Sequence record: LC739536.1
From: Escherichia phage phiWec187
Length of the DNA: 64,000 nucleotides
Direction: 5' to 3' (one strand)
This document shows positions 5,781 through 20,299 of the stretch, one piece after another. Below the pieces are notes generated by a model. The model did not search any database. It saw only the letters and a program-made list of their open reading frames with translations, and was not told where the DNA came from. Each line of letters begins with the position of its first letter. The first letter of the stretch is position 1. Made by a program: the position numbers and the translations under genes.

Positions 5781-6122
5781 ATGGAGCTAACAGAAGTATG
5801 GGATATCGCTAAAGAGGCGATTATCCCTCTTATTGGCGTAATCTGGGTGGTCTTCAAACAGAAGATAGATGATATGGCAAGTGATTTGGATAAAATGGAA
5901 GACAAATACCGCGAACTAGAAAAGAAGTTGGTGTTTGTTGAATCCACTTATGCTACCAAAGCAGAACTTGCTCAAATGCTTAACCAGATCAACTCTACAT
6001 TAATGGCAAATAATACTGCCTTAGAACAGAAGATTGAAAAAATAATGGATTTAAAAAATGCTCCTGTTCAATTAATGCTAGAGGAGATTACAAAGCGCAC
6101 ACAAAGTAAGGACAAAAATTAA
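5781..6122 (+). CDS. hypothetical protein (N-terminal hydrophobic helix plus coiled coil)
   Basis: 113-aa ORF; IIPLIGVIWVVF hydrophobic stretch then charged helical region; stop overlaps next start. Confidence 0.4.
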   Translation: MELTEVWDIAKEAIIPLIGVIWVVFKQKIDDMASDLDKMEDKYRELEKKLVFVESTYATKAELAQMLNQINSTLMANNTALEQKIEKIMDLKNAPVQLMLEEITKRTQSKDKN

Positions 6123-8536
6123 TGGCGAATTTTCCAACATATCCTGCTACGACACTAGAACAAGGTGTTGATCTGGTTATATTCTCGTCTAACCAGATGC
6201 ATGATGTTATTAATGGGGATGCTACAGCAACTGTAGAAACCGAAACAGGTTTAATACCTACACTGCGTAAAGCACTTGTTGATAACTTCTTCTTTAAGAG
6301 TCCTGTTGCTTGGTCAGCAGGATCAACTGAAACTGTATTTAACCAGTTACGTTATTTTGAAAACGGTATCTTGAGTGGGTACTATTATGCCCCATCTGCC
6401 ACTACTGCGAACCCTGTACCTATGCAGGGCACACCTGTAGGGGACAGTAACTGGACTCTGTACGCTCTTAAAACTGAACAGTTAGCTTCAGATGTGTATC
6501 CTTGGTATTTTAAAGGTGCTACAGGATATGAAACAGAAATCAGTCCTCCTTATATCTTTGATAATGCTATTGTCACCATTAACGGTGTAATTCAGATTCA
6601 AGGTGAAGCATTTACTATCAAAGATAGTAAAATTATTCTGGCAGAACCATTAGGTTTAGATCCGTCTACTGGTCTACCTAACAAATTGTTTGCTTTTATT
6701 GGTAAAACAACAGCTTCTACTTCTTACGTAGAGAAAAACCTTTTGTCATCTACTACTGGTGCAGCAATGGTTGGTCTTCCATCTGGAGGCAACCTGTTAC
6801 AAGCTCAATACTTTGTAACGCCTGAGCAGTTTGGTGCAATTGGTGATGGAGTTACCGATGATACTCAAGCAATTTTAAAAACTATCACTTTCGCTAACAC
6901 GAATAACATTCAAGTACGTGCAGATAAGAATTATAGATTCACAAGCTCAATTGCTATGTCTGGTATTCGTTGGTATGGTGGTACATTCACTGGTAACGGT
7001 GGAACAATGATTTCTACTGTGTCCTGTTGGATGGAAAACGTTCGCTTTGAAAAATGTTATGTTAAGATGTTAGGTGGTGATTGCCGATTCTATCGTAATA
7101 TCTTCTCCAACGCAACATCTACAGCAGCATTCTTAATGCAAGCAATGACAAGTGAAGGTACGTTGGACTTCAGTTACAACGAAATGTATGGTTGTAAATA
7201 TGCGATCCTGCAACAAGGTACTGGAGAAGTAATGACCTACGGGCGTTACTCTAACAACTATATTCACGATATCAAAGGTGATGCTATTGAACTTAACGTA
7301 GTTCAAAAACACTACACTGAAGGTTTGATTATCGAGAATAACCACATTGCTAACGTAGATGCTTCTGGACAAGGTGCAAACTGGGGTATTGGTATTGGTG
7401 TAGCAGGTAGTGGCCCATATGGTGTTGATGTTCCTGATTCACAATATGTACGTAATTTCAGTATCGTTGGGAATAGGGTTTACAATTGCCGTCAATGTTT
7501 ACACGTTGAAATGGGTAAAAACTTCACAATACGTGATAATGAAGTTTATCCTAACACAGCAGTTTCAACAGGTACAGGTTTAACTACTTGTGGTGTTGCA
7601 TTATACGGATGCCAAGATTTTGAAGTTGATGGTTTAACTGGTTATCTGCTCAATGATCCGTCTGTTTCAACACGTATGGTCTTTATTGACTGGGGTGTTA
7701 ACAGTGGAAGATATGCGGGGCCACCAATTAACTTTACAATTAAGAATTTGGATATTCCAGAATCTTCAATTGAGATTGCAACATCTGGATCAGATGCCTG
7801 GGAAAACTCTACAATTGTTAGTAATATCAATTGTAATATTTTTAAATGGCGTGGGCTACCATCTAGCTCTACCTTTAATAATATTCGTTGCCGTAGTATT
7901 GACTTTATTGGTCAACACGGAAGCGGAGAAGGAAGTGGTGGCGGTTTCTATACTCGCAGCCAATTCACGTATATGAAGTGGGTAGGATGTACAGCACTTA
8001 GCGGAGATGAAACAACAGTTTCTTTTGCTAAAATCTACACTGATCGTTGCGATCAGGTTGGAAATAACTTTGGTGTTCCAACTGCTGTTGATGGTACAGG
8101 TCATCGTGGGCCAGTTTTAACTACTATTTCTGAACAATATTTTACAGCTTATGATGAATTCCCAGGTGGGCGTGAATTCCCTACTGGAACAGTTATTCAT
8201 TGTGCAAGCGGTAAAAAACATGTTGTTACAGTAGGTGGTGCTTTCTTTAGTGACAACGAGAAAATAAAAGCAACTGTTACAGGTCAAACCTATCTACAGT
8301 CTAATGCTTTAAACTGGGCTAGTAATGGCTACGCTAAAGCAGCAGGTACTAAGATTGTTATTCCAGGTGCAGGTGCAAATGGCGGCGATCTTGTGACAAC
8401 TATAGCACGTGCTACATATGTGACAAATAGTTTGTACACAATAGATATTGCAGATCCAATTGTAACACCTACAGCAGAGAATACACAAATTAAAGCTCTG
8501 AATCCTGTTACTTTTGTTACTGTCAATAATGCTTAA
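6122..8536 (+). CDS. tailspike with right-handed parallel beta-helix (putative polysaccharide depolymerase)
   Basis: 804 aa; repeated beta-helix-like turns (NNHIANVDASGQGANWGIGIGVAGSG, VGNRVYNCRQCLHVEMGKNFTIRDNEVY); terminator follows. Confidence 0.7.
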   Translation: MANFPTYPATTLEQGVDLVIFSSNQMHDVINGDATATVETETGLIPTLRKALVDNFFFKSPVAWSAGSTETVFNQLRYFENGILSGYYYAPSATTANPVPMQGTPVGDSNWTLYALKTEQLASDVYPWYFKGATGYETEISPPYIFDNAIVTINGVIQIQGEAFTIKDSKIILAEPLGLDPSTGLPNKLFAFIGKTTASTSYVEKNLLSSTTGAAMVGLPSGGNLLQAQYFVTPEQFGAIGDGVTDDTQAILKTITFANTNNIQVRADKNYRFTSSIAMSGIRWYGGTFTGNGGTMISTVSCWMENVRFEKCYVKMLGGDCRFYRNIFSNATSTAAFLMQAMTSEGTLDFSYNEMYGCKYAILQQGTGEVMTYGRYSNNYIHDIKGDAIELNVVQKHYTEGLIIENNHIANVDASGQGANWGIGIGVAGSGPYGVDVPDSQYVRNFSIVGNRVYNCRQCLHVEMGKNFTIRDNEVYPNTAVSTGTGLTTCGVALYGCQDFEVDGLTGYLLNDPSVSTRMVFIDWGVNSGRYAGPPINFTIKNLDIPESSIEIATSGSDAWENSTIVSNINCNIFKWRGLPSSSTFNNIRCRSIDFIGQHGSGEGSGGGFYTRSQFTYMKWVGCTALSGDETTVSFAKIYTDRCDQVGNNFGVPTAVDGTGHRGPVLTTISEQYFTAYDEFPGGREFPTGTVIHCASGKKHVVTVGGAFFSDNEKIKATVTGQTYLQSNALNWASNGYAKAAGTKIVIPGAGANGGDLVTTIARATYVTNSLYTIDIADPIVTPTAENTQIKALNPVTFVTVNNA

Positions 8537-8577: not shown

Positions 8578-10539
8578 GTGATTTTAACACGTCCAAATAG
8601 TGCCATTGCAGACATGGTAGAGTCTCGCTATAGAAAGCGTAGAAGTTTTGCAAGTGGTTTTACCTTAAGAGATGCTCGTGAAGCATTGCTCTTTGAAACT
8701 GACGGTAACTACTATCAGTGGAAAGGTTCTCTACCTAAAGTTGTACCTGCTAACTCTACTCCTACATCTACTGGAGGGATTTCAGATACAGCTTGGAAAA
8801 ATGTGGGTAATGCAGATGACATTGCTCAAATAGAATCAGAATTAGATGCTATTGAAGCTGAAATTGAAGATCTTAGAGAATCCATTCCAGAGGCTGGTAA
8901 ATCAGCTTACCAGATTGCCGTAGACAATGGTTTCCAAGGTACTGAGACAGAGTGGTTGGCTTCTTTAAAAGGTGATCCAGGTGCTCCATTAAAGCTACTA
9001 GGGACGCTATCTAATACCAACCAATTACCTACAACTGGAAACAATGCAGGGGATGCATGGATTGTAGGCGAGAATATGTATGCTTGGGATGGTACTGCTT
9101 GGAGAAAAGTAAACTCACAGGGGCCAGAAGGTAAATCTGCTTATGAAGTATGGCTTGCAGCAGGAAACGAAGGTACAGAACTAGATTATCTTGCCGCAAT
9201 TAAAGGTGATAAAGGGGAGCCTGGCCCAGAGGGGCCACAAGGTGTGCCAGGTAATAATGCTAATGGTTTTGATTACCAAGGCGCAGCTAATTCCGTTTCA
9301 GATCTTCCTTCTGCATCTCCTGGAAACACATCTCAAGCATGGAGTATTGGTACATATCTATACGTGTCAAACGGTGTAGAATGGATCAATATGGGCGCTA
9401 TAGTGGGGCCAAAAGGAGATAAAGGCGACAAAGGAGATAAGGGTAACACTGGTGATTCAGCTTATCAAGTCTGGTTAAATGCTGGTAACGTTGGTACTAT
9501 TGACGAATATATTGCCTCTCTGAAAGGAGAAAAAGGTGATAAGGGAGACAAGGGTGATCAAGGTGAACAGGGTATACAAGGCTTGACGGGGCCAACTGGT
9601 GCAGGGTTGACCATTATTGACATTCTGACTAGCACTTCTGAACTACCACAAACTGGAGAAGATGGCGATGGTTATCTGATCAATAATGAACTTTGGGTCT
9701 GGTTGCAAGGAGCCACAGAGTGGACAAATGTTGGTCGTTTAGCTGGTACTCCAATCACTGCAAAAGGACACGTTGCGTCTGCAAGTGCACTTCCTCCTAC
9801 AGCCAATTACGGTGATGCTTATCTGACGGAAGATACAGGTCATCTTTACATTTACACCTATGATGAACAAACTCAAACTGCTGAATATGTAGATATGGGT
9901 AGTTTGAAAGGTGATAAGGGTGAAAAAGGTGACGCTGGTACTAACGGTACAGACGGTGCAACTTGGATTGTTAAAACAACAGATCCAATCTCTAGTGATG
10001 GTAAACAAGGTGATTATGCCTTTAATATCTCCACTGGCGAGGTGTTCTTAAAAACATCTGCAACTATCTGGACTTCTCAAGGTACACTACCTAGTATCAC
10101 AGATGCACCTAGTGATGGTAAGACTTATGCTCGTAAAGATGGAGCATGGGAAGAACTCACTAATTCTGTAGATGGTCAAGATATAGTTCCAACAAAAGTA
10201 ACAACTAATTTTATAGAGGTTACAGCATATACTAACAATTCTGTTACAGGGGACTGGACACCTCCAGGAACACATAACATGAATGTGTTGAATCTTACTG
10301 GTAACTCTACTATAAAAGCATGGCCTGGTGTCGAAGATAGCACAAAACCTAAACCATTCTCTGCAATAGTTTATCTTATCCAAGATGCCACTGGAGGTCG
10401 TACTGTTACTTTAGATCCATCTTACAAAGTAATTGGTTCCAGTGATATTAATACAGATCCTAACGGAGTAACAATACTACAACTAACATATTGTGGTGTT
10501 GGCGATTACGTGGATGCTATTGTTGCTAAACGCACATAA
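8578..10539 (+). CDS. tail fibre with collagen-like G-X-Y repeats and phage fibre repeats
   Basis: GDKGEPGPEGPQGVPG, GPKGDKGDKGDKGNTGDS, GEKGDKGDKGDQGEQGIQGLTGPTG; three copies of the SAYQVWL..G..GT..EY.ASLKG unit; GTG start after AAAAGGAG. Confidence 0.75.
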   Translation: MILTRPNSAIADMVESRYRKRRSFASGFTLRDAREALLFETDGNYYQWKGSLPKVVPANSTPTSTGGISDTAWKNVGNADDIAQIESELDAIEAEIEDLRESIPEAGKSAYQIAVDNGFQGTETEWLASLKGDPGAPLKLLGTLSNTNQLPTTGNNAGDAWIVGENMYAWDGTAWRKVNSQGPEGKSAYEVWLAAGNEGTELDYLAAIKGDKGEPGPEGPQGVPGNNANGFDYQGAANSVSDLPSASPGNTSQAWSIGTYLYVSNGVEWINMGAIVGPKGDKGDKGDKGNTGDSAYQVWLNAGNVGTIDEYIASLKGEKGDKGDKGDQGEQGIQGLTGPTGAGLTIIDILTSTSELPQTGEDGDGYLINNELWVWLQGATEWTNVGRLAGTPITAKGHVASASALPPTANYGDAYLTEDTGHLYIYTYDEQTQTAEYVDMGSLKGDKGEKGDAGTNGTDGATWIVKTTDPISSDGKQGDYAFNISTGEVFLKTSATIWTSQGTLPSITDAPSDGKTYARKDGAWEELTNSVDGQDIVPTKVTTNFIEVTAYTNNSVTGDWTPPGTHNMNVLNLTGNSTIKAWPGVEDSTKPKPFSAIVYLIQDATGGRTVTLDPSYKVIGSSDINTDPNGVTILQLTYCGVGDYVDAIVAKRT

Positions 10540-10542
10540 TCA

Positions 10543-10567
10543 AAGCCCCTTCTGGGGCTTATTATTT
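10543..10567 (+). terminator. rho-independent terminator after the collagen-like fibre gene
   Basis: aagcccc-ttct-ggggctt followed by attattt. Confidence 0.6.
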
Positions 10568-10578
10568 AAGGAGATTAA

Positions 10579-13398
10579 ATGTATCCTATTCCTTTATTTA
10601 TGTCAACAACATCAGCTTCAGTAGTAACAGCTACATCTATAACTACTTCCTCTATTGGTATTGCAATAGTTGGTGGTAAAAAACAACTGACATACACAGT
10701 TACACCGGAAGATGGTGCATTATTTGATATAGCTTTTTCATCTTCAGATAATACCAAAATGGTTATAGATAATAGTGGTATGATGGAGTTTGTTGCCGAA
10801 GGTGGTTTTGATGCAATAATGACAGCTAAAAATAATTTAGGTGCTGTCTTAACTGATCAATCTGGTGGTTATGCTTCAGAATTAAGTGTGTACACTGAAA
10901 GTCTATCGGCTATGGATGTAGGCACTACTCAACAGTTGGTTGCTACAATCAGTCCAGAAGGTGCTAAAGACCTTCCAGATATGGTAATTACATACACCAC
11001 AACAGATCCAGAAGTAGCTACTGTAAGCCCTACAGGGTTAATAACTGCTCTTAAAGATGGCGGTTGCCGTATAGGTTGTACTGCAACGTATCAAGGAACA
11101 GTTGTGGCCTCTGATAGGTCTTATTTAGGTGTTAATGCTATTCCTGTTATTTCTAATGTAACAGCCGTGGCAAACAGTTATGGAGACGTTCGTGTTGCTT
11201 GGGATGTAACTGATCCGCTAGACGGTGATACTTATACTGTAGAAGTATTAGATTTAAGTAATAATAGTGTTCAGTGGACTACAACAACCACGAATACTTA
11301 CGCTTACTTTGATATCTCTGACTCTATTCCTCTTTATGGGTTTGCTCCAACATACCTTAAAATTAGCGTTAAGAGCACCAAAGCAGCAGCCGTTATCTTT
11401 AATAACTCAATAGCTACAGATGATTCGTTCATTAAAGAAGTTATTGTCTTTGCTGGACAAGATAACGTAAATGCACACTTTACAGAACTATCTGGTGCAA
11501 ATAAAGCAGCAATGAGTAGCACAACAGCCCGTAATGCATATGCCACGCAACGTGGTTTAGCAAATGCTGAAGTTCTTCCGTTAAATACAGCTTCTGGATC
11601 ATCAGCAGCAGATAAATATGCAGATGATAAAGCCGGAACAGGAACACCAGACAACTACTGGTATGATCTGGATAACACAGCAGATGGGCCATGCTTAACT
11701 AACTTTATCACTAAAGTCACACCTTATGCAAGTAAGGTTAAAGCCATTATTTGGGGACAAGGTGAAAATGATGCTGTATCAGCATCTTCGACTGTTGCAG
11801 GTAGGTACAGTAACACTACACGTTACCATGATGCTACGATAGCCATCTTTGATAAGATGCGTACAATAGTTCCTGCTTCTCAAGCAAAAATTGTTTGGCA
11901 GATCCTAGGACGTTCTTATTTATATGGTGTAGAAGTTAATGGTGTGGATTGGCAGAAGTACAGAAATGTACAAAGAACCATCTCTACAGCACGTGATGAT
12001 GTTATCATTGGTTCTTGGGTAGATGGTGCTGAACGTTACAGTGGTTATGTTTATGAAGAAGGTATTGATGGTCGTATCCATTATATTTCTTCTGTATACC
12101 AAACAGCAGCTACAAAACTTGCTAAATCAGCAGCAGACGGTACAGACTTAACATCAACGTCACCTGTTTGGGTTGATATGGCTGTTCCAACTGGAGCAAC
12201 AGCTACTTCCCAATCTAATCAAGATACAATTTTAGCATGGGATGCTCAAGGCTATAGTAAACACTACTTCCGTAATATTAACGTCTTAACCGCATCTGTA
12301 TTAACTGAACAAACGCTTAATACGAACAGTTATACGTTTACCTATGCAGATCAAGTAGCACAATATGGCTTTGCAGCAGGAACTACTATATTTGATGTTG
12401 CATATTATGACGAAGCAAATGATGTGTTATCTCCTTTAGTACGTTTTAATGTTAACGTTACAGCAGGAACCGTAGAAGATAAACCTGTAGTGATGGATTA
12501 TGATTTAACACAAGAAACTCTTCCATCAGATGTTAAGGTTAATGGTGGGAACTCTTTTGCTCGTACTTCTGGAGATACACTTGTAGCCACTAACACCTTG
12601 GTTGCTCCGTTGGAGTATATTGGTACTACCCCTGTAGGTAGACGTGTAACAGCTAACACAGCTACACAAATTTTTGTCAACAACGCCTTAACAAGTGCAA
12701 GCCCGTGGGTAAAGACCAACTTAACTGTTGCAGCTTCATCTGATAACTCTCCGGTTGGAACTACTGCTAATGTATTCAAATTAACTCCGACTACAACCTC
12801 TGGTAGTCATATCTTAACTGCAACATATACTAACGCGTACAACATATCTGCCGGACGTAACTGGTCTGCCTCTGTTTTCTTGAAAGCGAACGGGATTACT
12901 AAGGCCAAACTAAGATTAAAAGCAGGAACTGAAGTTAATGAGGGTACTTTTGATTTAGCAGCAGGTACATTCACAGGAAGTGAAGCTAATATTATATCTA
13001 TGGGCAACGGTTGGTATCGTGCTATTCTGCATAAAACAGGGATAGCCAAACAGTCCTCCATAAGTTTTGAAATAATTGCCTTGGATGCAACTGGTGCGGA
13101 GATTTTCGCTGGAGATGGTACTAGTAACCTTGCAGTTTGGTTGCCACAGCTTGAAGGTGCTTCTACAGGAGAAACATCAAAAGCTGGATCGCCTTATGTC
13201 TGCACATATCCTGGAAATTTAGGAGGAGTATCCTTCACTATACCAAGGAACGGACATACTGGTGTGGATGTTTACTATTCCAACGGAGACGTTGTTCGTG
13301 ACGTATTCTCTGGTACGGCATCTACTTGGACAATAAACTACTCCAGCTTGTACGATTGGGGATCAGTCTTTATTACAGGTTTGAAATATTACGACTAA
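10579..13398 (+). CDS. large tail fibre/receptor-binding protein with Ig-like (Big_2-type) domain and putative esterase-like domain
   Basis: 939 aa; Big_2-like segment (TQQLVATISPEGAKDLPDMVITYTTTDPEVATVSPTGLITALKDGGCRIGCTATY); IIWGQGENDA resembles SGNH/sialate-O-acetylesterase-type motifs (weak); terminator follows. Confidence 0.55.
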   Translation: MYPIPLFMSTTSASVVTATSITTSSIGIAIVGGKKQLTYTVTPEDGALFDIAFSSSDNTKMVIDNSGMMEFVAEGGFDAIMTAKNNLGAVLTDQSGGYASELSVYTESLSAMDVGTTQQLVATISPEGAKDLPDMVITYTTTDPEVATVSPTGLITALKDGGCRIGCTATYQGTVVASDRSYLGVNAIPVISNVTAVANSYGDVRVAWDVTDPLDGDTYTVEVLDLSNNSVQWTTTTTNTYAYFDISDSIPLYGFAPTYLKISVKSTKAAAVIFNNSIATDDSFIKEVIVFAGQDNVNAHFTELSGANKAAMSSTTARNAYATQRGLANAEVLPLNTASGSSAADKYADDKAGTGTPDNYWYDLDNTADGPCLTNFITKVTPYASKVKAIIWGQGENDAVSASSTVAGRYSNTTRYHDATIAIFDKMRTIVPASQAKIVWQILGRSYLYGVEVNGVDWQKYRNVQRTISTARDDVIIGSWVDGAERYSGYVYEEGIDGRIHYISSVYQTAATKLAKSAADGTDLTSTSPVWVDMAVPTGATATSQSNQDTILAWDAQGYSKHYFRNINVLTASVLTEQTLNTNSYTFTYADQVAQYGFAAGTTIFDVAYYDEANDVLSPLVRFNVNVTAGTVEDKPVVMDYDLTQETLPSDVKVNGGNSFARTSGDTLVATNTLVAPLEYIGTTPVGRRVTANTATQIFVNNALTSASPWVKTNLTVAASSDNSPVGTTANVFKLTPTTTSGSHILTATYTNAYNISAGRNWSASVFLKANGITKAKLRLKAGTEVNEGTFDLAAGTFTGSEANIISMGNGWYRAILHKTGIAKQSSISFEIIALDATGAEIFAGDGTSNLAVWLPQLEGASTGETSKAGSPYVCTYPGNLGGVSFTIPRNGHTGVDVYYSNGDVVRDVFSGTASTWTINYSSLYDWGSVFITGLKYYD

Positions 13399-14613: not shown

Positions 14614-15561
14614 TTAGAAACAGTGCAGGAAGTTTCGACCATACTGCAAACCAATAGGAGCAAATGGGATATCATCATCGAAATCTTGAACAACAGGTTC
14701 TGGCTCTTTCGGTGCTGGCTCTTTCTTCTCTACTTTTTTAGTTTCTTTCTTAACTTCTTGTACCGGGGTAGACATTCCACGGATAGCAGCAGCTACTTTA
14801 TCAGACAAAGCAAGAACTTCACGAGCAGCTTCAATAATCTCTTCTGCCGTTACAGTCTTACCTGTATGATCACGACAAGCGTTAAGAATTGCGTGTCCAA
14901 CTGAAGCACCAAGATCATAGTCAGTCACATCAACGCCACGATCTTTAGCAATTTCTGCTTTCAGAGTAACAGTTGCAGATTGTACCACACCAGCCAAGTC
15001 GAAAGCATCACCTTTCACACCAGCACGTAGAAGCTCCAGAGCGCCGTTCACAGCGTGTCCTGTTTCAATCCCCACGGTATCACGTTTTTTGTAGTTAGGC
15101 TTGTTACCGTCATTATTAGATGGCTTATTTCCACCTTTTGAAGAGGATTGCGCTTGCTGAACACCTTCTGTTGAAAGAATAGTGATTTTACCTTTAGAGG
15201 AATTGTAGTATGTTTTGCCATTCCATTCAGAAGGTTTAACATCCATAGTTAGTTCTACACCTTTTTCGATAGTAACCCACTTGTCACCATCTTTAACTTG
15301 CAGGTTTTCATGTTCTGGATGCAGTTTAACTTCACCTAGGCTAACCCAAACACCTTTATCATCAGCACTAGCACCTTTCTCTTTAATAAGCAGAGATGCT
15401 TTGTGAGTTGATTCAATTTTCTTATCTGGCTGACCTGCAACCTTAATATAAGAGACTTTCATTTCATCAAACTTATCCAGTTTGACATATTCAACGATAC
15501 CTTCAGCCCAGAATGCTTCTTTTTTAGTACGACGGTCGATTTCAGAATTAATTACTGGCAT
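14614..15561 (-). CDS. SSB-like protein carrying an E. coli SSB-type acidic tip motif
   Basis: 315 aa; DFDDDIPF (identical to the bacterial SSB C-terminal tip) lies 15 residues before the stop; Gly/Asn/Lys-rich linker upstream; OB-fold not verifiable by eye. Confidence 0.45.
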   Translation of the reverse strand: MPVINSEIDRRTKKEAFWAEGIVEYVKLDKFDEMKVSYIKVAGQPDKKIESTHKASLLIKEKGASADDKGVWVSLGEVKLHPEHENLQVKDGDKWVTIEKGVELTMDVKPSEWNGKTYYNSSKGKITILSTEGVQQAQSSSKGGNKPSNNDGNKPNYKKRDTVGIETGHAVNGALELLRAGVKGDAFDLAGVVQSATVTLKAEIAKDRGVDVTDYDLGASVGHAILNACRDHTGKTVTAEEIIEAAREVLALSDKVAAAIRGMSTPVQEVKKETKKVEKKEPAPKEPEPVVQDFDDDIPFAPIGLQYGRNFLHCF

Positions 15562-15577
15562 AAATTCTCCTCTATAA

Positions 15578-15976
15578 TTACATTACTTTAACACAAAACT
15601 CTCGTAAAAGAGTAGCGTCAGTTTCTTCCAACAGGTATTTACCAAGACCAATACCAAATCCTATTTCACCACTTTCGAAATGGAGGATTTGTATCTTTTC
15701 TCCACCAAGGTTAATTACTTTTGCTTTTCCAGGATTATCCAAAACATCTCGTATTGTATCCTGTAGTAGCATTAGTTCACGTTTTGTGATAGTGGTTTCA
15801 GATATCTCTTTGTTTTCTACTCTCACTGTTAAACGGTTGTATCCACCAAAGAGACATAGTATTTGAATAAAAAAGGTATTATCTTGAGGTTCAACATCTT
15901 TTTTAGTTAACTCAAGACGATTAGTTTCTCTACTATAGAACGTCTCGACTAAGATTTTAGAACGATTATCTGTCAT
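15578..15976 (-). CDS. hypothetical protein
   Basis: 132-aa ORF in the replication block. Confidence 0.4.
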   Translation of the reverse strand: MTDNRSKILVETFYSRETNRLELTKKDVEPQDNTFFIQILCLFGGYNRLTVRVENKEISETTITKRELMLLQDTIRDVLDNPGKAKVINLGGEKIQILHFESGEIGFGIGLGKYLLEETDATLLREFCVKVM

Positions 15977-16019
15977 TCAAGTCCTCATAATAACACATAA
16001 TTATAATGTTTGTCAACAC

Positions 16020-16613
16020 TTAAATTTTAAATTCTTCACTGTTAAATGAATCCAGTGTACGTACTTCTGGTTCTTTGGGAATGAAAACGTCTTTTACAAA
16101 GCGGAACATAGGGAAACGTTCTGCCATTTTACGGACGTGTGCTTCTTTACCTGTGTATCGGTGATTAATAGTACAAATATTAGTTTTCAGTGCAAATTCA
16201 AAATCTGGATGATATACATAATTTTGACCATCCCAGTAACACAAGCAAATAGCTACATCAAAGTTCCATACGATTTCACTGCGTACACCTTCTTCCATAA
16301 TCATAAAGTTAAACTTAAGATCTTTATAGTATGCTTCAAATACCCATTTCAAATGCGGTAGTTCGGCATAAGTGTGTTCTGTTTGCTTAGTAAGTTGTTT
16401 AACATTACGTGCACCAACACCCAACATCAAAAATTTCTCTACTAATACGATTGTATTGTGGTTAGGCATACGCAAGTAAATATCAATATCTTGCGCAGGT
16501 TTCTCTAATCGCCAATCACGTACAGCGCCGCCAGCTACAATTGCAAACGGATCTACCAGTTGGCACATACGTAATACTTCTAAAGCTCGTACTTTTTGAT
16601 CTTCAATATTCAT
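16020..16613 (-). CDS. minimal nucleotidyltransferase (CCA-adding/poly(A) polymerase head-domain-like)
   Basis: AGGAVRDWRL followed by DIDIY, matching the GGxVRD...DxD signature of the Pol-beta-type tRNA nucleotidyltransferase head domain; only 197 aa. Confidence 0.5.
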   Translation of the reverse strand: MNIEDQKVRALEVLRMCQLVDPFAIVAGGAVRDWRLEKPAQDIDIYLRMPNHNTIVLVEKFLMLGVGARNVKQLTKQTEHTYAELPHLKWVFEAYYKDLKFNFMIMEEGVRSEIVWNFDVAICLCYWDGQNYVYHPDFEFALKTNICTINHRYTGKEAHVRKMAERFPMFRFVKDVFIPKEPEVRTLDSFNSEEFKI

Positions 16614-16750
16614 ATTTTCTCCTATCTCTTATGGTCTTTGCGTTATTCTAGATGTTCAAACATCTAATTATGAAATGGTTTAAAAGTGCGGAACAACCTT
16701 GGCAATTACAGATTGTTCCACATAAAAACTCCTTTAAAATCAAAGATTTG

Positions 16751-19700
16751 TCAATGACAACTAGCCCATGAGTTACCAACATCGTAACCAGCAGTGAGAG
16801 GTACATTAAGATTGTAATACTCACCAGCTTTATTAACAGCGATAGATGCTAATTCTCCAGCACGACTGTAGGCTGTAAACCAACCACCTTTCGGAGATTC
16901 ATGTACGTTAGCCCAAATCTTGCCAGTACGTTTCTCTTCCTCTTCTTTCCAGGTATTAACTTTATCCAAACATTCTTTATCAATTTTCTTTTGTTCTTCT
17001 GGATCATCAACTTGAGTCCAACCTAAAGATTCTTTAGAGAACCATTTAAAATGCACCAGATCACGAGTTACTTCAAGCTGTGCTTCATCGTGATATGCAA
17101 TCATTTGTTGAACGAATGACTTATTTTTCCAGTCATCAACAAAAAAGTCAACAGCTAATCCTTCTTCTTCGATAAGATCGTCGTAGATAACCATTGCTCT
17201 TTTTGCACAAATAACACCACCACTCTGGAACAGAGAGTTAAGTATTGCGTGTGCAGATCGTGTAGGTACTTTTCTACCATCAATACCGAGAATGTATTTC
17301 TTACCTGTTTTAACCCAAAAATCATGCAGACGTTCTTTAAGAAGCGCAAGAGGTTTTGCAGCTTCCCAGAAAGCATCGTATACAAGCTGTCCTGTATACA
17401 TATCACTACCTATAGTTTTTGCTACTTTTGCAGCTTGAGCGCCGTACGTGCAGTTACCTGTCAACGTGATAAAACCATTCTGACGCATAACAAAAGATTC
17501 ATTCTTGGTTGAGATACAGAATACATCTGTTACTCGTGAAAAAGCTCTTGTCAACCTCTGTCCTGAAATAGTTTGTCCGTTATTGATTGCCAACGTTAAC
17601 ATGCCATCTTTTTGAACAGAACCATACGCAATATTACCTGTCATATTGATAGCCAAAGAAACAGCGTCGCTAATCTTACCTTTCTTTTGACGGATAACAA
17701 GACTGCCGTTTGGACGCTTATGACCATCTGCCATCCAGAATGCCTCTAAGAATGCTTCCAACACAGCTTGACCTTGATTAGCAATTAATGTAGACCAGTC
17801 CACTTCGTGCTTATTTTGACCCACTTCAACGCCACATTTAGTCAAAAATTCCCTAAACTGACTCTTATTAGGACGTAATGAATGCATCGTTCCAGATACA
17901 TACTCGTCAAATGTGAAGATATCTCCCACAGCCTCACGTGCTTCTTCTAAGAATTTTTTCTCATCTTGATCTACCGTGACTGTAATACCCATTACTTTAT
18001 TTCTGGCTTTGCCAGACCACTTATAGTAGCCATCCGAAAGAAGCCAGCCTAAGAAACGACCTTCTTCCACTGTTAGAGTAGACACCACACCAGATCGCCC
18101 TGCTGCAATTATGTTTGACTCCGAGTTTAAATCCTCTGTAGATCTACGCTCCACTTGCATATACTTAACATTGTTACCATCTGATCGCATAGTTTTTCTC
18201 TGTGCGTTAATCCACATATGATCGTTAGTAACTTCTACTTTGAACCACTTGTTACCGAGAGAGACAACTTCTGCATCGTTATAGTCCCACAGCTTAAGAA
18301 TAGGGGTATATTCGTAAAGAGCGGTGTGAGTATTATAAGATAAAACTTCATCCCCTACAAAAAGATCTTTACGTTTCTTCCAACCCGTTCTTGTTAACAC
18401 TTCCGTATTATCTACAGGTACACAACCGTATTTAACGCTCTTAGCAGGACCACGTTCAAACTTACGTCCAATAATATCAGTAATATGTTTTGCCATCATA
18501 GTATGCACATCGTTTGGTTTTTCTAACAGAAGTGCATTACAGTAAGCATGATCAGGATTATCATATCTCCACGTATAATGCGACTCAATCTTCGCCTCTA
18601 ATGAATCAAAGTCATAACCAATCTGGAAGTATTTAGGAACCTCTACACCAAATAAGTTACGCATTTCATATCCGTACAGAGATGTTACACGTGGGATATT
18701 TGCTACTAACCTATGTTTCATACGAGATGTAGCTGCATCACACGTTGCAGCAGGAGTTGGTATACGACCATCAGCCCTTACTGCTGCCAGATAACCTTTA
18801 TCGTAATCCTCTTCTTCTTCCCAATCAGCACCACCCCCTAGAATAGAGTTCCTACGGTGTTTATACGTAAGATACTGCACAACCTGCGTAGCATAAGGAA
18901 ACTTTTCACCTAGTGCTTCCAAGTTAGGACAAATATCTTTCTCTTGCCCTTTTGTAAAGGAAGGGTTAGTAAGCACTTTAACACCACGACCTTTAGCTTT
19001 AGCAATACGATCTCTTAGTTTCCATTCCAAAGTTTCTGGTGTGCACTCCAGATGATCACATCTGTCCTGGCAGAAATTAGATGCTAATGTTTGATCAACA
19101 TAGTCACGAATGGCTTTCTCCATTTGTGCTTCATCTTTCTTAATCTTAGTGCCAGATTTAAGAGTGATATCTTTATCTTTATATTCAGATGGACTCCAAC
19201 CTAAACCAACTAACCAATTTTTAATATGTGTTGTGTCGTCTAAAGTAGCAGGTACTGTAGGATCACAAATAGGTTCTTCTGCTGGAATAGGTAGTTTAAA
19301 CTCTTTACCTAATGCAAATAACCACCAACCATCTTCTTTTTGTACAAGTTCACCAGAATGTTTCTCTGCAAACTTTATCATGTTACTTGAAGGTTCACCA
19401 TTCTTTTTAAACTGTAGTTTAGGTGGAATGAATGATTTCAAATAACCTTTAGTAGCAGGTTTAGGAGGTAGCACAGGTTCTGCCTCTAAACGACATGCTT
19501 CCATTCGAGCATCCAGATCACGAATATTATCTTCTGCTTGTTTCATGTTGAAAGCAAAGCCACGGTGCTCTTGACGTGTAATAATATCAGCTACACGTTG
19601 TTCTAAGTTAAATGGTTCAGACCACTTATTATAATCACCCCACTCTTCCATCAAATAACGGAACACTGCGGTGTTAGCTTTGTTATCGTAAATACAGTAA

Positions 19701-20299
19701 TACAGCATATCTGCTGCAAATGTTCTAAATCTTTCAGTTTCAGGGATGTTTTTTCTGAAATCAATTTTAACATCCCCTCCAGCTTTCTTAGATAACTCTG
19801 CCAGACTATGACCACCGAAGCGATCAGGGTTTAGTGTCTTACTTAAGATCATAGTATCACAAATTTCAATGTTACTATTACCCCAAGTATTGTACTTAAT
19901 ACTGTAGTTGAGTTTAAAAAATAATTTAATTGCCAGTAAGTCGAAGTTAATGATGTTGTGTCCAACTACTTTGGTAATTTTATAGTTTGAATTACCTTTA
20001 AATTTACCTGTTCCGTTTACAAAATCAGGAAAATCTTTAAGAGGGAAATGGGTATATTCTAAATGCTCATATTCCTCCAGTCGGTATTCATACTTTCCGT
20101 CAGTCTCAACATACGGACGACCATCGAAAAGATATTTATCACCATCATGGAAAGCAATAATCTCTCCAGTATCATGACTTTCGCACACAATACAGTGCAT
20201 TGCAAAACTATCTTTTAAACGATATGGACTTGCCAAGTAATCTACACTTTCGTCATTAAGCAAGTTGTTACTTTCAATGTCGAAAGTAAAAGCTCCCAT
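16751..20299 (-). CDS. family A DNA polymerase with N-terminal 3'-5' exonuclease, interrupted by an intein
   Basis: Motif B region RGPAKSVKYG...CTYGAQAAK split by a 324-aa insert; motif C AYHDEAQLE; N-terminal exonuclease-like FDIESN. Confidence 0.85.
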   Translation of the reverse strand: MGAFTFDIESNNLLNDESVDYLASPYRLKDSFAMHCIVCESHDTGEIIAFHDGDKYLFDGRPYVETDGKYEYRLEEYEHLEYTHFPLKDFPDFVNGTGKFKGNSNYKITKVVGHNIINFDLLAIKLFFKLNYSIKYNTWGNSNIEICDTMILSKTLNPDRFGGHSLAELSKKAGGDVKIDFRKNIPETERFRTFAADMLYYCIYDNKANTAVFRYLMEEWGDYNKWSEPFNLEQRVADIITRQEHRGFAFNMKQAEDNIRDLDARMEACRLEAEPVLPPKPATKGYLKSFIPPKLQFKKNGEPSSNMIKFAEKHSGELVQKEDGWWLFALGKEFKLPIPAEEPICDPTVPATLDDTTHIKNWLVGLGWSPSEYKDKDITLKSGTKIKKDEAQMEKAIRDYVDQTLASNFCQDRCDHLECTPETLEWKLRDRIAKAKGRGVKVLTNPSFTKGQEKDICPNLEALGEKFPYATQVVQYLTYKHRRNSILGGGADWEEEEDYDKGYLAAVRADGRIPTPAATCDAATSRMKHRLVANIPRVTSLYGYEMRNLFGVEVPKYFQIGYDFDSLEAKIESHYTWRYDNPDHAYCNALLLEKPNDVHTMMAKHITDIIGRKFERGPAKSVKYGCVPVDNTEVLTRTGWKKRKDLFVGDEVLSYNTHTALYEYTPILKLWDYNDAEVVSLGNKWFKVEVTNDHMWINAQRKTMRSDGNNVKYMQVERRSTEDLNSESNIIAAGRSGVVSTLTVEEGRFLGWLLSDGYYKWSGKARNKVMGITVTVDQDEKKFLEEAREAVGDIFTFDEYVSGTMHSLRPNKSQFREFLTKCGVEVGQNKHEVDWSTLIANQGQAVLEAFLEAFWMADGHKRPNGSLVIRQKKGKISDAVSLAINMTGNIAYGSVQKDGMLTLAINNGQTISGQRLTRAFSRVTDVFCISTKNESFVMRQNGFITLTGNCTYGAQAAKVAKTIGSDMYTGQLVYDAFWEAAKPLALLKERLHDFWVKTGKKYILGIDGRKVPTRSAHAILNSLFQSGGVICAKRAMVIYDDLIEEEGLAVDFFVDDWKNKSFVQQMIAYHDEAQLEVTRDLVHFKWFSKESLGWTQVDDPEEQKKIDKECLDKVNTWKEEEEKRTGKIWANVHESPKGGWFTAYSRAGELASIAVNKAGEYYNLNVPLTAGYDVGNSWASCH
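17453..18424 (-). mobile_element. intein with LAGLIDADG-type homing endonuclease inside DNA polymerase motif B
   Basis: Begins CVPVDNTEVL (intein block A), ends ...LTGN with +1 Cys; internal GWLLSDGYY and LEAFWMADGH resemble the two LAGLIDADG helices; removal restores K-x3-YG-x2-YG. Confidence 0.75.

Follow-up and report, generated by a model that had tools for sequence, protein, structure and literature searches.

What does a nucleotidyltransferase that consists of a head domain alone do for a phage? The question is raised by one gene of Escherichia phage phiWec187 (sequence record LC739536.1), a phi92-like E. coli phage (Justusliebigvirus), of which a 64-kb stretch of DNA (hereafter the window) was analyzed. 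On the minus strand of the window, one ATG-started open reading frame (ORF; 16020-16613, 197 aa) reads MNIEDQKVRALEVLRMCQLVDPFAIVAGGAVRDWRLEKPAQDIDIYLRM... and had been predicted to encode a minimal CCA-type nucleotidyltransferase head domain that could repair tRNA 3' ends.

The gene and its sequence family

The motifs behind that prediction are both read straight from the sequence: GGAVRD (residues 28-33; 16515-16532, minus strand) is the first half of motif A, the holder of the NTP triphosphate, and DIDIY (residues 42-46; 16476-16490, minus strand) contains D42 and D44, the metal-binding catalytic carboxylates of the DxD motif. A ribosome-binding site, AGGAG (16619-16623, minus strand), lies 5 nt upstream of the ATG, and the same site is annotated in phi92. 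Across its full length, the surrounding DNA (window 15000-18000) is 98.5% identical to several phi92-like genomes; with phi92 itself, the same identity holds for the 81% of the query that can be aligned. The ORF is the equivalent of Phi92_gp158, for which the RefSeq product name is 'nucleotidyltransferase'; elsewhere it is recorded as 'putative tRNA nucleotidyl transferase/poly(A) polymerase'. The exact 197-aa sequence is present in NCBI as BDU13036.1 (Escherichia phage phiWec187), and 55 phage records contain the ORF at a protein identity of at least 95%. The gene is thus already annotated publicly as a nucleotidyltransferase.

Sequence searches assigned the protein to PHROG 1614 'nucleotidyltransferase' (E 4e-34, residues 7-193). 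Matches to the models of cellular enzymes were fainter: the Pfam head domain of poly(A) polymerases (PF01743) scored 19.2 bits (E 0.0016), below its gathering threshold of 23, and was matched at E < 0.01 by only 23 of 138 relatives, while the CCA equivalog models of NCBIfam were matched at sub-threshold level only. A further family, PF26128.2, is precomputed in Pfam for four close homologues (one of them 98% identical); the copy of Pfam scanned here did not report PF26128, and our literature search found no mention of it. When the single sequence was searched against the PDB, the best match was an Arabidopsis CCA enzyme at just E 0.55, so a family profile was required for significance: with the profile, CCA-adding enzymes were matched at E 3.5e-4, in a residue-by-residue alignment of the N-terminal helix and motif A (GGAVRD...DVD of the CCA-adding enzymes).

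Searched against 1.84 billion representative proteins, the profile found 1252 relatives at E <= 1e-3, nearly all of them stand-alone proteins of 175-240 aa. Among the longer homologues (250-400 aa) no domain fusion was found by Pfam, and the sole extra domain found by PHROGs was phrog_17589 (function undescribed), N-terminal in two of them. Since the ORF matches PHROG 1614, recurs in 55 phage records and has 1252 profile relatives, it is, on this evidence, a real gene rather than a fortuitous open frame. That it has no body and tail domains was borne out as well, both by the size of these relatives and by comparison with E. coli Cca (197 vs 412 aa).

A scan of species-representative genomes with one peptide pattern found 12 loci among 185,579, all on metagenome-assembled contigs, so the family looks phage-restricted. 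Phages with relatives include phi92-like, rV5-like, ICP1-like and T7-like ones, and structural matches extend to giant viruses. The homologue of Vibrio phage ICP1, ORF223 (137 aa; BFVD F1D1P7), is shortened and matches residues 3-126 only; its region (6001-6369 of the ICP1 locus) is recorded as two hypothetical proteins in some records, and ORF223 may be a decayed or split copy.

Anatomy of the head domain

A first structure model, built from five sequences, was poor (pLDDT 68) and was discarded for an AlphaFold model built from an alignment of 138 relatives, which are 21-54% identical to the query except for one near-identical sequence (pLDDT 91, pTM 0.84). [quoted passage not shown] In the viral structure library BFVD, the best matches were phage proteins of 167-224 aa, several of which bear the name 'Poly A polymerase head domain protein' or 'nucleotidyltransferase'; the truncated ICP1 ORF223 was matched too. 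The predicted secondary structure corresponds one for one to that of a class II head: helix A, beta-1, helix B, beta-2 with the DxD, helix C, beta-3 to beta-5 and a short helix are followed by beta-6 and beta-7, a helix, beta-8 and one final helix, and both the Pol-beta sheet and the two extra strands of class II heads are present in the predicted fold. Thus profile search and structure prediction both place the ORF with class II head domains, and the original prediction was right in its domain call.

Comparison with E. coli Cca and the Bst, Aquifex and Planococcus enzymes separated what the phage protein retains from what it has lost. Retained are motif A, the N-terminal helix, the catalytic sheet together with the pair of additional class II strands, and a single helix equivalent to the beginning of the neck. 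G28, G29, D42 and D44 are invariant in the 138 relatives, and Q6, A10, A27, A30, R32, D33, W34, Y82 and K162 are conserved in over 90%. Alignment beyond motif A was difficult: with E. coli Cca as the only partner, hhalign paired just 24 columns, all in motif A, and global hhalign against a four-sequence class II alignment gave a probability of 19% and was judged unreliable in its mid-section because beta-6 and beta-7 were skipped. The mid-section was therefore mapped by secondary-structure order, not by 3D superposition.

The long flexible loop of class II enzymes is absent, as are the neck beyond its first helix, the body and the tail. Motif B (RRD, ribose recognition), which reads KRRDLTINA or KRRDFTMNA in class II enzymes, is represented here by WNFDVAIC, and no Arg-Arg-Asp is conserved in the 138 relatives. 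Motif D, in which EDxxR acts as an amino-acid template for CTP and ATP (PMC11784652, also for the roles of the other class II motifs), is not conserved either. The helix aligned there reads KEAHVRKMAERF; the alignment by hhalign and by hand sets ...KEAHVRKMAERF against ...EDALRMMRAVRF, and of the class II pattern EDxxRxxRxxRF only the terminal R-F is common to KEAHVRKMAERF. The helix has no Glu there, its Asp position is acidic in just 50% of relatives, and its Arg position is hydrophobic. This C-terminal helix (residues 158-166), the counterpart of the motif D region and first neck helix of class II enzymes, does carry a Lys conserved in 93% of relatives (K162; 16128-16130, minus strand). Judged from the alignment, then, motif A, the site of NTP and metal binding, is intact and strictly conserved, whereas the elements for specificity and for measuring the tRNA are gone. 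The loss of motifs B and D is new here and worth following up.

The catalytic carboxylates gave a divided answer. The DxD, whose change to AxA inactivates E. coli Cca (PMC11784652), is present and invariant. The third acidic position, on the other hand, seems to be held by Asn in this protein and by Gln in most relatives: by secondary-structure register, N102 on strand beta-5 (16308-16310, minus strand) occupies the class II Glu position (E-V/F-x-T-x-R), which reads EVTTFK in the Bst and EFATAR in the Aquifex enzyme. Position 102 is Gln in 81%, Asn in 14% (Asn or Gln in ~96%) and Asp or Glu in 4% of the 138 relatives. A possible substitute is E93 on strand beta-4 (16335-16337, minus strand), expected across the hairpin from N102 and acidic in 70% of relatives (E 58%, D 12%). 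Positions 93 and 102 are weakly anti-correlated (Fisher p = 0.028), and 37 of the 138 relatives (27%) have no acidic residue at either. The chemistry of this phage subfamily may therefore differ, or its activity may be low; the Asn or Gln is an unexplained feature and not proof of inactivity. It, too, is new here and worth following up.

Gene neighbourhood and candidate functions

Directly upstream of the nucleotidyltransferase gene lies that of a family A DNA polymerase (16751-20299, minus strand; Pfam DNA_pol_A and phi92 annotation). Downstream follow a small gp157-like ORF (15578-15976, minus strand; 132 aa, phrog_16560, function undescribed, no Pfam match), a gp156 homologue, annotated as a single-stranded DNA-binding protein in some related phage records, and a methyltransferase. 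To describe this context across the family, 80 related IMG/VR loci were collected, genes were called, the nucleotidyltransferases were clustered at 70% identity into 50 lineages, and the neighbours were clustered. Within four genes of the nucleotidyltransferase, a family A DNA polymerase was found in 23 of the 50 lineages, a DnaB-like primase-helicase in 19, an HNH endonuclease in 10, a 5'-3' exonuclease in six, and any replication gene (polymerase, primase-helicase or exonuclease) in 31. Polymerase and helicase neighbours were always on the same strand, HNH neighbours in all cases but one. On contigs of at least 75 kb the replication association was seen in 11 of 23 lineages, against ~10-20% expected by chance (our own estimate). 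The gp157-like ORF accompanies the nucleotidyltransferase and a gp156-like protein in five of the 50 lineages. This strong, repeated linkage to DNA polymerase is new here and worth following up.

Two small elements flank the gene. A strong sigma-70-like promoter match (15987-16016, minus strand; TTGACA, 18 nt, TATTAT, extended TG; 11/12) separates the nucleotidyltransferase from the gp157-like ORF, immediately past the stop codon of the former, which suggests that a transcription unit shared with the polymerase ends with the nucleotidyltransferase; the count of promoter-like sites in the region was not above that of shuffled controls. In the 137-nt gap between polymerase stop and nucleotidyltransferase start, an 18-nt near-perfect palindrome, TAGATGTTCAAACATCTA (window 16649-16666), coincides in part with a weak promoter-like site (16674 to 16645, minus strand) and may serve as an operator or form an RNA hairpin.

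Our preferred reading, held tentatively at a probability of about 0.4, is that the protein would be an active but unspecific, template-independent 3'-end nucleotidyltransferase and not a true CCA-adding enzyme. It would add nucleotides at a free 3'-OH, RNA being the most probable acceptor, with no built-in CCA specificity or stop, so that its putative action would be more like that of poly(A) polymerase or the MenT toxins than of a CCA-adding enzyme; it would probably be made together with the DNA-replication genes, right after DNA polymerase, and its candidate targets are the 3' ends of host or phage RNAs, damaged tRNA ends included. We infer the preference for RNA over DNA, by analogy, only from the closest structural relatives; the conserved replication-gene neighbours point equally to a DNA-linked role.

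A remote relative with published toxicity is consistent with such an activity. Gp22 of Klebsiella phage fHe-Kpn01 (182 aa) is encoded directly after DNA polymerase, in the same order as here, and matches both PHROG 1614 (E 1.3e-39) and the family of the 197-aa protein (hhalign probability 85%, E 6.5e-6). Over-expressed in E. coli, it was toxic in growth curves and in two screening assays (PMC7291057, PMC8145870), which fits uncontrolled tailing better than harmless repair. Its authors reported a canonical acidic h[DE]h third motif (PMC7291057); the phi92 subfamily, with Gln or Asn, therefore differs at that site. Similar short proteins of T7-like and phiKMV-like phages (LKD16, PP2, DU_PP_II and Cd1), named 'nucleotidyltransferase' or 'poly A polymerase head domain' proteins, also belong to PHROG 1614, adjoin DNA polymerase, match the phiWec187 model in BFVD and resemble the phiWec187 protein in size (167-220 aa). 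Gp22 and the other T7-like and phiKMV-like proteins are, however, only ~19% identical to the phi92-type protein, and toxicity has been shown for Gp22 alone among them. In Pectobacterium T7-like phages such genes beside DNA polymerase have been called CCA-nucleotidyltransferases without functional tests (PMC7693777), and in phage KP34 no Gp22 homologue is annotated in the replication region. Our literature search found no characterized phage head-only nucleotidyltransferase beyond the Gp22 toxicity reports and comparative-genomics notes.

Other known systems were compared as well. Class II enzymes (E. coli Cca, PcnB, the Bst CCA enzyme 1MIV, the Aquifex A-adding enzyme 4WBY) are twice the size of the phage protein and have the flexible loop, RRD, EDxxR, motif E, body and tail that it lacks, and the phage family is found essentially in phages only. 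Streptococcus pneumoniae NP_344798.1 (PDB 2LA3), described as a 'CCA-adding enzyme head domain', is bacterial and forms a separate family, since it is 9% identical and undetected by sequence. A possible functional analogue is offered by the MenT and AbiEii (DUF1814) toxins, small Pol-beta-fold enzymes that extend the 3' ends of tRNAs although they have no body to measure the tRNA (PMC7450476, PMC11541572); the phage protein showed no DUF1814 membership by sequence or close fold and no adjacent antitoxin.

The original prediction went further than the domain and proposed tRNA 3'-end repair. As a dedicated enzyme of CCA repair or maturation, the head alone would put back a missing C, C or A after host nucleases or a tail-targeting defence have trimmed the tRNA. 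CCA- and A-adding enzymes are indeed the closest homologues by sequence and fold, and immunity of the tail-cutting kind exists in Cas12a3, which cleaves tRNA 3' tails (PMC12851939). The window contains no tRNA genes; a complete 98.5%-identical genome contains a cluster of 15, a point in favour of the idea, but all 15 encode the 3' CCA and the enzyme is therefore not needed for their maturation. Maturation of CCA-less phage tRNAs was accordingly rejected for this phage, and the inventory counts against a tRNA need. A different situation was met on an IMG/VR contig of 147.7 kb (region 9155-11108), where a distant relative (36% identity) lies 2.6 kb upstream of a 10-tRNA array in which nine tRNAs have no encoded CCA; this lends modest support to a connection with tRNA, though for that lineage alone. 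Across the family, tRNA genes were within 6 kb at only five of 60 loci, compared with replication genes within four genes in 31 of 50 lineages, and relatives also occur in T7-like phages, which to our knowledge generally have no tRNA genes. Moreover, the elements that such repair would call on (EDxxR, RRD, flexible loop, body and tail) are all missing, Cca is already present in the E. coli host, and the toxicity of Gp22 is unexpected for a repair enzyme. Thus, of the proposed relation to tRNA nucleotidyltransferases, fold and family stand, with motif A aligned residue for residue to class II, while repair of tRNA CCA ends, possible but without specific support, is an unlikely function here.

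The replication neighbours invite a second explanation, in which the protein would be an accessory DNA-replication enzyme that adds nucleotides to DNA 3' ends or primers together with the phage family A polymerase. Since the ribose-sensing motif is missing, deoxynucleotides are a possible substrate; yet similarity to the class II RNA enzymes is much stronger than that to family X polymerases, and no fusion to a replication protein was found by Pfam or PHROGs among the longer homologues. The replication region of T7-like genomes also houses many host-takeover genes, so proximity to the polymerase may reflect timing of expression and not function. We consider this role unlikely. Transfer of a nucleotidyl group to a protein or small molecule, for example to inactivate a host defence or metabolic factor, appears improbable: the nucleotidyltransferase matched no PADLOC defence model, our literature search gave no supporting report, and the best fold matches were all RNA 3'-end enzymes. 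Least probable would be a weak or inactive protein whose head fold binds nucleotides or RNA ends as a decoy or inhibitor. The third-carboxylate position, non-acidic in most relatives and without an acid at either candidate site in 27%, would suit such a binder, but that GG and DxD never vary, and R32 and D33 hardly do, among relatives at 21-54% identity is the pattern of an active enzyme. Unspecific 3'-end addition, most probably to RNA, stays the preferred reading.

A more speculative thought follows from the Gln or Asn at the third site taken together with adjacency to family A polymerase in unrelated phages, which suggests a new reaction: the family might be a phage-only class II branch that works in the DNA-replication module with chemistry new to the fold. 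We regard this as unlikely; if true, the candidate reactions would be extension of DNA ends or primers without a template, or attachment of a nucleotide to a factor of replication or defence, and not RNA tailing or repair. On present evidence, the polymerase linkage, the loss of motifs B and D and the third-site Gln/Asn together make no new kind of system. Protein, family and fold are already public (RefSeq name, PHROG 1614, Pfam family, a solved stand-alone head-domain structure and a published toxic relative), and the gene is an already catalogued family member.

The case has a bearing on annotation, as head-only nucleotidyltransferases are common in lytic phages (1252 cluster representatives in the profile search) and short phage head domains are routinely named 'tRNA nucleotidyltransferase' without evidence. 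That label, like the 'CCA-type' of the original prediction, over-reaches, because the protein has lost the elements that define CCA specificity and tRNA binding, and because the genes conserved around it serve DNA replication. Finding the real substrate would correct a widespread annotation, and a host-takeover or counter-defence activity could emerge, one relative being toxic to E. coli.

The insertion in the DNA polymerase

The neighbouring DNA polymerase is itself unusual in length: it comprises 1182 aa with an insertion of 325 aa (residues 626-950; window 17450-18424, minus strand), which is missing from a 98-99%-identical polymerase of 859 aa and from another of 852 aa. The Pfam scan of the polymerase ORF matched DNA_pol_A at residues 498-627 only. 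The insertion starts with Cys (CVPVDN...), a Cys comes directly after its end (...TLTGN), and within it are two LAGLIDADG-like motifs (FLGWLLSDGYY and FLEAFWMADGH); as far as sequence can tell, these features are characteristic of an intein that carries a homing endonuclease.

The insertion stretch has no counterpart in most phi92-like relatives. Four unannotated GenBank records named 'Campylobacter phage' (MG065639.1, MG065645.1, MG065656.1 and MG065689.1) are 98.5% identical to the 3-kb query over its full length, including this stretch. MG065639.1 is flagged UNVERIFIED and is classified under Justusliebigvirus in its own record, and the Campylobacter host label of this record and its three sister records looks doubtful.
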